Source: Naegleria gruberi
Lineage: Eukaryota
Assembly (NCBI GenBank): GCA_000004985.1
Contig: GG739615.1
DNA length: 1,017 nt
Direction: 5' to 3' (one strand)
In this document: piece by piece, positions 1 to 1,017 of the stretch
How the letters are laid out: each line of letters opens with the position of its first letter
Numbering within the stretch: position 1 is the stretch's first letter
Made by a program: the position numbers and the translations under genes
Notes under the pieces: model-generated
What the model was told of the DNA's origin: nothing
The model's input: only the letters and a program-made list of their open reading frames with translations
The model's database searches: none

Positions 1-161
1 ATTTATATTTTCATTTAATTGATTTAAATTTGAATTTAAATTATTTATATTTAAATTATTAAAAATATTATTTAAATAAATTGTTTGATTAATAAATGGA
101 TAAATTGATTGTAAATATAAATCATTAACATTATCAGCAAATATTTTAACTATATTTCCAC
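1..161 (-). CDS. Probable exon 3, partial, running off the window at position 1. It is an ATG-less open frame encoding (G)GNIVKIFADNVNDLYLQSIYPFINQTIYLNNIFNNLNINNLNSNLNQLNENIN...
   Basis: The minus-strand frame with codon high-ends at 159, 156, ... 3 has no stop across 53 codons. In DNA this AT-rich that is improbable by chance, since TAA, TAG and TGA together would be expected roughly once per 10 codons. The + strand has stops in all three frames. The part at 100-161 has diverse codons (GGT GGA AAT ATA GTT AAA ATA TTT GCT GAT ...), typical of coding sequence. There is no Met, so an upstream splice acceptor is required. Confidence 0.4.
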
Positions 162-246
162 CTATTTTTAGTAATTTATAAATTAATTAAAAAATTAAAA
201 AAATTAAAAATTAAATATTTTTTAATAAAAAAAAATAAAAACAAAC
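162..246 (-). other. Candidate intron 2, 85 nt, GTTTGT...TACTAAAAATAG. The donor is non-consensus, so this is uncertain.
   Basis: Minus-strand sequence 246->162 is GTTTGTTTTTATTTTTTTTTATTAAAAAATATTTAATTTTTAATTTTTTTAATTTTTTAATTAATTTATAAATTACTAAAAATAG. Positions 176-241 are 100% A+T. The track's C-terminal FLFFFIKKYLIFNFFNFLINL uses only F, L, I, K, N and Y, which is exactly what translating pure A/T sequence produces. The only AG in the region (163-162) is preceded by a TACTAA-like branch motif. With the GT at 246-245 it gives a phase-1 junction, G|GT = Gly, that reads straight into the open frame at 1..161. Confidence 0.4.
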
Positions 247-562
247 CCTTTGAAATATCATTTGCAGAATTTAAAAAAGTTTCAAAAGTTTTAGAAATAG
301 TTTCAAATGTTTTTGAAATAACTTGACCACTTCCAATTCCATAAGAAACTGTAAAAATAATTCCAATTAAACTTCCAATTACAATTAAAAATATTAAAAA
401 TGAATAAATTATAATGATAAACATTTGATTACTATTTGTATATTCCTTTTTAGTAGATGATGATCTAACACAACATAATCTTCTAATAATATAAAATATT
501 ACAAATGTTATTGTAATTAAAATACCAATTAATATTATAACTCCGCACATAATAAGTGCGAA
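247..562 (-). CDS. Exon 2. It encodes two transmembrane helices, a cytoplasmic RRLCC loop and a tandem SKTFET repeat. If intron 2 is not used, the CDS instead continues to a TAA at 176-178.
   Basis: The translation is FATIMCGVIILIGILITITFVIFYIIRRLCCVRSSSTKKEYTNSNQMFIIIIYSFLIFLIVIGSLIGIIFTVSYGIGSGQVISKTFETISKTFETFLNSANDISK(G). The two hydrophobic stretches of about 23 and 30 residues map to nt 485..556 and 332..424. Composition stays coding-like down to about 247. From 241 down to 176 the + strand contains no G or C at all. Confidence 0.5.
278..319. repeat. Imperfect 21-bp direct tandem duplication (agtttcaaaagttttagaaat / agtttcaaatgtttttgaaat, 19 of 21 identical) inside exon 2. It encodes the duplicated peptide ISKTFET-ISKTFET.
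   Basis: Read directly from the + strand at 278-298 and 299-319. Each unit contains an inverted repeat of tttcaaa and tttgaaa; the copy in unit 2 (301-318) is perfect, 7 bp with a 4-nt spacer. Confidence 0.6.
544..560. other. GC-rich 5-bp inverted repeat, CGCAC-N7-GTGCG. In the mRNA this hairpin would sit just 3' of the intron-1 acceptor and enclose the ATG that the ORF track picked.
   Basis: On the + strand cgcac is at 544-548 and gtgcg at 556-560, with loop ataataa between them. It is the only GC-rich palindrome in an otherwise roughly 80% A+T window. Confidence 0.3.
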
Positions 563-629
563 CTATTGTAATCATTTAAATATATTATTAAATATTTACT
601 ATTTAAGTAATAATAAAAATAAAACATAC
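563..629 (-). other. Intron 1, 67 nt, GTATGT...ACAATAG on the minus strand. Spliceosomal and dictyostelid-type.
   Basis: Minus-strand sequence 629->563 is GTATGTTTTATTTTTATTATTACTTAAATAGTAAATATTTAATAATATATTTAAATGATTACAATAG. Removing it joins codon TAT (632-630) to TTC (562-560), which is exactly the frame of ORF 176..550. The open frame of that ORF in fact begins at 562 (F-A-T-I-M...), immediately after the TAG of the acceptor. A 52-bp gap between two same-strand ORFs is too short for a terminator plus a promoter. Confidence 0.55.
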
Positions 630-1001
630 ATATGAATATCTAACCCAAGAACATAAATCTAAATTATTTGGAGTTTCACTTTGAACAGATTTAAAATCAC
701 AATTTTTAAACCAATCTTGCCAAGTAGAGACATCACCATTATTATTAGTATTATTATTTGATGATGATTGTTGAATAGTAGTATAATAATCCAATGATGA
801 TGTTAATAATTCCATACTTGAAATAAATAAATTATTAGTAAATTCATGATAATGATGATGGAAAGATGATGATGAAATTAATTGATTTTCATATTGTTGT
901 TCTTCATGACCATTAGTGAATGTTATTGTTAATAATACTAATACTACTACTAATAACAATAAAACAGTCAATGATATTCTTGATAATGTTGGTGATATCA
1001 T
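630..1001 (-). CDS. Exon 1 of a minus-strand gene. It encodes a signal peptide plus a low-complexity ectodomain of 124 aa (MISPTLSR...SWVRYSY) and ends in phase 0 at a GTATGT donor.
   Basis: ATG is at 999-1001 (cat on +). The N-terminus MISPTLSR-ISLTVLLLLVVVLVLLTITF-TNG has the n-region, h-region and small-residue cleavage site of a classic signal peptide. The frame is open down to 630, and the next minus-strand bases (629-624) read GTATGT. The 8 residues VCFIFIIT that the ORF track adds (606-629) come from roughly 90% A+T sequence and look like intron read-through. Codon usage is Dictyostelium-like. Confidence 0.6.
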
Positions 1002-1017
1002 TGTGTGGTTGAATGGT

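Follow-up and report, generated by a model that had tools for sequence, protein, structure and literature searches.

Prominins are defined as pentaspan membrane proteins with a 2+2+1 arrangement of transmembrane segments, intracellular loops of <25 aa and extracellular domains of ~280 to >300 aa (Bell et al. 2024, PMC11405016). A Trp residue in TM5 (human Trp-795) is nearly invariant in curated prominins (PMC11405016), and for CD133 a cluster of Cys residues has been described at the boundary between TM1 and the first intracellular loop, IC1 (PMC10967083). The groups covered by a eukaryote-wide survey of prominins are metazoa, fungi, excavates, SAR and green plants, with Amoebozoa not listed (PMC11405016), and prominin-like proteins in Naegleria gruberi have been noted in a review (PMC10967083). 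The Tweety homologs (TTYH) are five-TM proteins of 2+2+1 topology with extracellular domains of ~120 aa and have been proposed as distant homologs of the prominins (PMC11405016); they have also been reported in D. discoideum (PMC8273234). As to gene structure, the introns of D. discoideum are 89.13% A+T with a median length of 103 nt (PMC2483917), and medians of 104 nt for D. discoideum and 78 nt for D. purpureum have also been given (PMC4683709).

The stretch of DNA analysed here (1,017 nt, referred to throughout as the window) has a G+C content of ~19%. Judged from its sequence and from that of its relatives, the window very probably holds the 5' part of one minus-strand gene that comprises three exons and two GT-AG introns and would encode a prominin-like N-terminal third.

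Reading frames, predicted exons and introns of the locus

Two open reading frames lie on the minus strand: ORF1 runs from the ATG at 1001-999 to the TAA at 605-603 (132 aa) and ORF2 from the ATG at 550-548 to the stop at 178-176 (124 aa), with a spacer of 52 nt between them. A sequence-only reading of the window had placed the same two frames at 603..1001 and 176..550, 52 bp apart on one strand, and these coordinates hold on the minus strand. The gene model that we favour consists of the following features, which are listed in the direction of transcription:

630..1001, minus strand: exon 1, 372 nt, 124 codons from the ATG at 1001-999 (from ORF and translation)
563..629, minus strand: predicted intron 1, 67 nt, phase 0, donor GTATGT at 629-624, acceptor ACAATAG at 569-563 (AG at 564-563)
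247..562, minus strand: exon 2, 316 nt, encoding TM1, loop, TM2 and the start of the first large extracellular domain (from translation and hydropathy)
~562..485, minus strand: predicted TM1, FALIMCGVIILIGILITITFVIFYII (from hydropathy)
484..425, minus strand: predicted Cys-containing cytoplasmic loop, RRLCCVRSSSTKKEYTNSNQ, ~20 aa, beginning RRLCC
~424..341, minus strand: predicted TM2 (from hydropathy)
162..246, minus strand: predicted intron 2, 85 nt, phase 1, donor GTTTGT, acceptor AAAATAG, 95% A+T
176..246, minus strand: apparent C-terminal tail of ORF2, …LFLFFFIKKYLIFNFFNFLINL followed by the stop at 178-176, probably intron 2 read-through and non-coding
1..161, minus strand: exon 3 (partial), in which the first extracellular domain continues (GNIVKIFADNVNDLYLQSIYPFINQT...), with the frame open to the window edge

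With its 372 nt, exon 1 puts intron 1 in phase 0, and the break falls on a codon boundary. Conceptual removal of intron 1 joins ...CSWVRYSY to FALIMCGVIIL in a frame that is stop-free through exon 2, whilst its retention leads to a stop after eight extra codons (VCFIFIIT). In the sequence-only reading, a GTATGT donor at 629-624 and an AG at 564-563 had been taken to bracket the 67-nt segment, and both the sites and the arithmetic were confirmed; equally correct was the statement that from 562 onwards the downstream frame is open and that the in-frame TAG upstream of it belongs to the acceptor, as the codon at 565-563 is indeed a TAG holding the acceptor AG. Two details need amending: the A+T content of the segment, put at roughly 87%, was computed as 89.6%, and the fused peptide, rightly described as being in frame, had been given as FATIM where the sequence reads FALIM. 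G+C content is 24%, 21% and 11% in exons 1, 2 and 3 and 5% in intron 2; intron 1 coincides with a drop to 10% between its two flanking exons.

When compared to dictyostelid GT-AG introns, intron 1 is alike in its GTATGT donor, its TAG acceptor, its short length, its A+T content of ~90% and the ~22% G+C of the surrounding exons; its 67 nt fall a little below the median for D. discoideum, and nothing about it is unusual. Intron 1 is devoid of any CTRAY that could form part of a wCTRAY branch-point motif; since no more than ~33% of D. discoideum introns contain this motif (PMC2483917), we attach little importance to that. The segment 629..563 is most likely an ordinary U2-type GT-AG spliceosomal intron joining both ORFs. 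An internal AATAG is present at 600..596 on the minus strand, 31 nt into intron 1, with an in-frame TAA directly after it; AG 600-599 was considered as a cryptic acceptor and rejected, because the resulting 31-nt intron would be followed immediately by this stop. An RNA hosted in the intron was also considered and rejected, as scanning the window with Rfam and for tRNAs yielded no credible candidate: a match to snoU18 (E 0.51, 23 bits against a gathering score of 47 bits) falls within exon 1 and on the other strand.

A second spliceosomal GT-AG intron at 246..162, overlooked in the sequence-only reading, is supported by a frame switch in tblastn, by the best HMM score among six candidate junctions, by gapless protein alignment and by an intron in Naegleria, all of which are set out below. 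This intron would split a Gly codon as G/GT and contains an ACTAAA 6 nt before the AG of its 3' splice site, which is one base off wCTRAY. The alignment with homologs leaves the ORF2 frame at 247 and resumes at 161. With intron 2 in place, the tail of ORF2 (GLFLFFFIKKYLIFNFFNFLINL), that is its last 23 residues together with the stop, is to be regarded as intron read-through; removal of this phase-1 intron would join exon 2 to exon 3, and as the frame of exon 3 is open to the window edge, the gene would run on beyond the window.

At the 5' end, the five codons between the window edge and ATG 1001 are in frame and stop-free (PFNHT-M...), so that the assignment of ATG 1001 as the start is inferred rather than proven; the coding sequence may extend upstream of it or include another exon. 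The 16 nt before the ATG (1017..1002, minus strand) are 44% G+C, which is unusually high for gene-flanking DNA in such a genome. By codon position, G+C is 0.28/0.34/0.09 in exon 1 and 0.24/0.30/0.06 over the whole spliced frame, a strong position bias, and in codon usage AAT, CAA and AGA are exclusive, with TCA, TTA and ATT dominant. Together with the ~19% G+C of the window, the Asn- and His-rich tracts and the introns of 67 and 85 nt with ~90-95% A+T, such codon usage would fit a dictyostelid origin, as had been assumed in the sequence-only reading. Exact look-ups in public assemblies found neither ORF1 nor ORF2 on record in unspliced form, and for the spliced product, ORF1 and ORF2 alike no identical or >50% identical protein was present among the ~15 billion proteins of the collections searched: the proteome of the source is missing from them or lacks annotation.

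Homologs and intron positions in related genes

With the conceptual splice product as query, an exhaustive HMMER search recovered four relatives. The best of these, P0001, is a Naegleria lovaniensis protein of 915 aa (XP_044546481.1; named "Prominin" in UniRef, A0AA88GKK2), which matches query residues 83-280 with an E of 1.4e-43 and hence spans both junctions. Over residues 85-279, the window protein and P0001 are 42% identical in BLASTP, and both junctions are crossed without a gap: CSWVRYSY·FALIM is aligned with CAWISYLY·FILIV of P0001 at junction 1 and NDISKG·GNIVKIF with KDITGG·TGIVKVF at junction 2. Over junction 1, the alignments to P0001, P0002, P0003 and P0004 are all gapless (BLASTP and multiple alignment), and residues 93-124 from exon 1 align to P0001, P0003 and the L004 gene. 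The same picture is obtained from the raw DNA: when P0001 is aligned to the window by tblastn, the match falls into three minus-strand segments, each in a frame of its own, along which the P0001 coordinates are contiguous. Of these, one covers P0001 up to residue 79 and ends at 630, one covers residues 80-185 (562..245; 41.5% identity for exon 2, no gaps) and one covers residues 185-234 (162..13). The second segment starts on the first base past the acceptor of intron 1, so that the switch at 630/562 corresponds to P0001 79/80, and residue 185 of P0001 is common to segments 2 and 3 at the second frame switch. Exon 3 displays 44% identity to P0001 185-234 and 43% to P0002 77-129. Word-indexed protein searches gave no matches with the spliced protein as query, only P0003 and P0007 with the family alignment and only P0004 itself with P0004, probably because low-complexity words swamp the candidate list; scans of metagenomes with a degenerate peptide and with an exact 26-mer gave no matches.

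The exons of the relatives were mapped on their genomic contigs (L001-L005, of which L001 and L004 are environmental). Four divergent genes, including that of the window, have a phase-0 GT..AG intron at one and the same codon boundary directly ahead of TM1, and the N. lovaniensis gene contains a second intron:

Window, intron 1: VRYSY/gtatgt, 67 nt, aatag/FALIM, phase 0, before TM1
N. lovaniensis (L003), intron 1, 3238..3367: ISYLY/gtaagt, 130 nt, aatag/FILIV, phase 0
N. lovaniensis (L003), intron 2, 3681..3886: 206 nt, phase 1
L001, intron, 543..594: SHYLQ/gtttga, 52 nt, aatag/FIILV, phase 0
L004, intron, 149..341: ISYGY/gtaagt, 193 nt, ctcag/FILII, phase 0

The 206-nt phase-1 intron of N. 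lovaniensis lies in the same G/GT GG context as intron 2 of the window and is displaced from it by one codon in the gapless protein alignment. The intron before TM1 is absent from the gene for P0004 (L005, a genomic contig of 18.6 kb) and also from that for P0003 (L002), a contig that ends in an A run and may be a transcript. Over the 283 residues encoded here, to which the comparison extends, the N. lovaniensis gene is alike in both intron positions, in a Cys/Trp motif, in the hairpin of TM1, Cys loop and TM2 and in the start of the extracellular domain; it differs in that its introns, of 130 and 206 nt, exceed those of the window in length and are less A+T-rich (G+C ~0.32) and that the N-terminal regions, which are of low complexity, are unrelated.

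Two of the relatives illustrate how such a gene is misread. P0007 (L001 616..2985) and P0002 (L004 435..1031) are N-terminally truncated database gene calls that start inside TM1 and in the loop after TM1, respectively, in both cases just past the intron boundary: intron-blind gene finders missed exon 1 (the true first exons being L001 381..542 and, in L004, the sequence ending at 148, with the frame open as far as the contig end), and the same artefact yields ORF2. The main value of the present analysis is consequently one of annotation, as intron-blind ORF finding yields two spurious orphan proteins at this locus where the correct model would be a single multi-exon gene extending past the window. 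The biology of a short A+T-rich GT-AG intron is routine; of modest interest is the conservation of an intron position before TM1 in four divergent amoebal genes, one of them heterolobosean, which could help to trace how the prominin/Tweety superfamily originated outside animals.

Frame-restoring GT..AG pairs are common in this DNA, with nine stop-free pairs near the gap and 30 over a wider range, so that the case for intron 1 has to rest on independent evidence. Among the nine, 629..563 is the shortest, keeps the most coding sequence and has the strongest donor. The candidate junctions were also scored with an HMM built from the homologs only, with the window protein left out: the two-intron model reached 165.6 bits, as against 137.4 bits for the earlier one-intron model, and intron 1 gave the best junction of the nine (others ≤151.6 bits) and intron 2 the best of its six stop-free candidates (others ≤151.3 bits). 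These results bear directly on the possibility that the locus holds two independent small genes, with ORF2 expressed from its own mRNA starting at ATG 550 and the GT..AG pair arising by coincidence. The abundance of frame-restoring pairs would allow for such a coincidence, but in each of four other organisms a single protein aligns over the boundary without a break, homologous genes are interrupted there by an intron as well, the ATG of ORF2 lies within a conserved transmembrane helix, the spacer amounts to only 52 nt, and ORF1 and ORF2 unspliced score just 25.2 and 87.8 bits alone; we consider the probability of two genes to be very low. The claim of the sequence-only reading that the two ORFs are one gene split by a 67-nt intron is therefore borne out by gapless homologs, by the tblastn frame switch, by the best HMM score and by the shared intron position.

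A real intron with a different junction is hardly more probable. Both 644..563 (donor GTTAGA, 82 nt) and 625..541 (GTTTTA..GCGGAG, 85 nt) are stop-free and in frame, but they lower the score to 149.6 and 151.6 bits, respectively, lose residues conserved in the homologs (VRYSY in one case, FALIMCG in the other) and use donors that match the consensus poorly, and the introns of Naegleria, L001 and L004 lie exactly at the boundary between ...Y/Q and F.... Only a slight chance is likewise given to a decaying pseudogene or gene fragment, or to a main product that results from intron retention and would be a truncated secreted protein of 132 aa ending in VCFIFIIT. In keeping with decay or retention, the remainder of the gene lies outside the window, the metagenome scans returned no matches and the collections searched hold no identical or close protein; against this, the three exon segments are stop-free, codon-position bias is strong (third-position G+C of 6%), an identity of 41-44% has been kept with frame changes in the homolog match only at the two canonical introns, and both introns retain consensus splice sites. 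One gene with two predicted introns is the model used below.

The encoded protein compared with prominins and Tweety homologs

The window encodes 283 residues of the product, in which the predicted order is signal peptide, low-complexity ectodomain, Cys/Trp motif, hairpin of TM1, loop and TM2, and a long helical extracellular domain. Residues 1 to ~31 are hydrophobic and predicted to form a signal peptide or signal anchor; between these and the Cys/Trp motif, the ectodomain encoded by exon 1 is of low complexity and rich in His, Ser and Asn. The motif itself, C-x-[FY]-x(8)-P-x-N-x-D-x-C-x-W-x-x-Y, is conserved, and the splicing of intron 1 would place ...CSWVRYSY next to FALIMCGV..., directly before the TM1 helix. 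In exon 2, the multiple alignment reveals five family-invariant residues (C155, Y165, I184, I206 and T216), and a pair of Cys residues would be located at the boundary of TM1 and the cytoplasm within the hairpin.

The sequence-only reading had described the product as a signal peptide plus a two-TM protein ending at 176, which can no longer be upheld in view of the second intron, the frame open to the window edge and relatives of 789-915 aa with five TM segments. These full-length relatives combine two long loops with five hydrophobic segments arranged 2+2+1 and carry 10-18 sequons for N-glycosylation; the 2+2+1 hydropathy is seen in P0001, P0003 and P0004, and the window itself covers the signal peptide, TM1 and TM2, with TM3 to TM5 expected beyond its edge. 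The product would match the N-terminal third of these amoebal proteins, which are labelled prominin or prominin-like in databases, and this argues for its being the N-terminal third of a pentaspan glycoprotein of ~800-900 aa.

Comparison with the metazoan prominins (CD133/PROM1 and PROM2) reveals that the relatives are alike in their 2+2+1 topology, N-terminal signal peptide, short cytoplasmic loops, Cys cluster, two large N-glycosylated extracellular loops and size of 789-915 aa. The Cys cluster after TM1 reads RRLCCVR in the window and RRVCGLCGS, RRCCGLCGS and RKFGRCGN in relatives, and IC1 is ~20 aa in the window. Differences are also clear: sequence similarity to the metazoan proteins is marginal, the first extracellular domain of the relatives (EC1, ~205-230 aa; EC2, ~330-370 aa) is shorter, and no Trp is present in the TM5 segments predicted from hydropathy for P0001, P0003 and P0004. 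The Tweety homologs are similar in their five-TM 2+2+1 topology, but are about half the size and have extracellular domains of ~120 aa as opposed to the loops of 200-370 aa in the relatives.

Profile and structure searches place the family close to the limits of detection. The window protein gave no match to the Pfam Prominin family (PF05478) at E≤1 and only sub-threshold Pfam matches (EphA2_TM, Ly49 and Tweety), with that to Tweety (PF04906) over TM1-TM2 being non-significant (E 0.18, 10.9 bits against a cut-off of 31.8 bits). One out of six family members matched Pfam Prominin: P0004, which carries a precomputed PF05478 annotation and aligned to positions 93-219 of the profile with an E of 2.2e-8 and 33.1 bits, 1.2 below the gathering score of 34.3 bits. 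Sequence searches of the PDB with the family profile, P0004 and P0001 returned no prominin or TTYH chain. An AlphaFold2 model of P0003, computed from an alignment of six sequences, reached a pLDDT of 46 and a pTM of 0.30 and is too poor for a meaningful fold search; Foldseek with this low-confidence model against the PDB gave no match at E≤0.001, and TTYH2 chains recur among its non-significant matches. Membership in the prominin family is thus plausible but borderline, and we lean towards the gene being prominin-like in the sense of true homology to prominins. We further infer splicing in vivo, cleavage of the signal peptide and a prominin-type function, i.e. that of a glycoprotein of curved membranes.

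A prominin-like pentaspan family in a dictyostelid-type (very A+T-rich) genome would be of modest interest. We consider it rather doubtful that the gene truly represents an amoebozoan (dictyostelid) branch of the prominin superfamily with two intron positions in common with Naegleria; if true, the shared introns would date back to a very early divergence among eukaryotes, or the gene together with its introns would have been transferred between soil amoebae.

In two local features the coding sequence differs from the relatives. The His-rich FHHHYHE (863..843, minus strand) and the SSSNNNTNNNG (767..735, minus strand) in exon 1 have no counterpart in relatives and represent low complexity typical of the lineage. 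At 319..278 (minus strand), the protein contains a perfect tandem repeat, ISKTFET-ISKTFET, encoded by two 21-nt units with two synonymous differences, at a position where relatives display a looser heptad-like pattern (ISTTFNT-ISMTIDQ); the repeat, located in the juxtamembrane helix that follows TM2, may be the result of an in-frame duplication or of conversion in the recent past.
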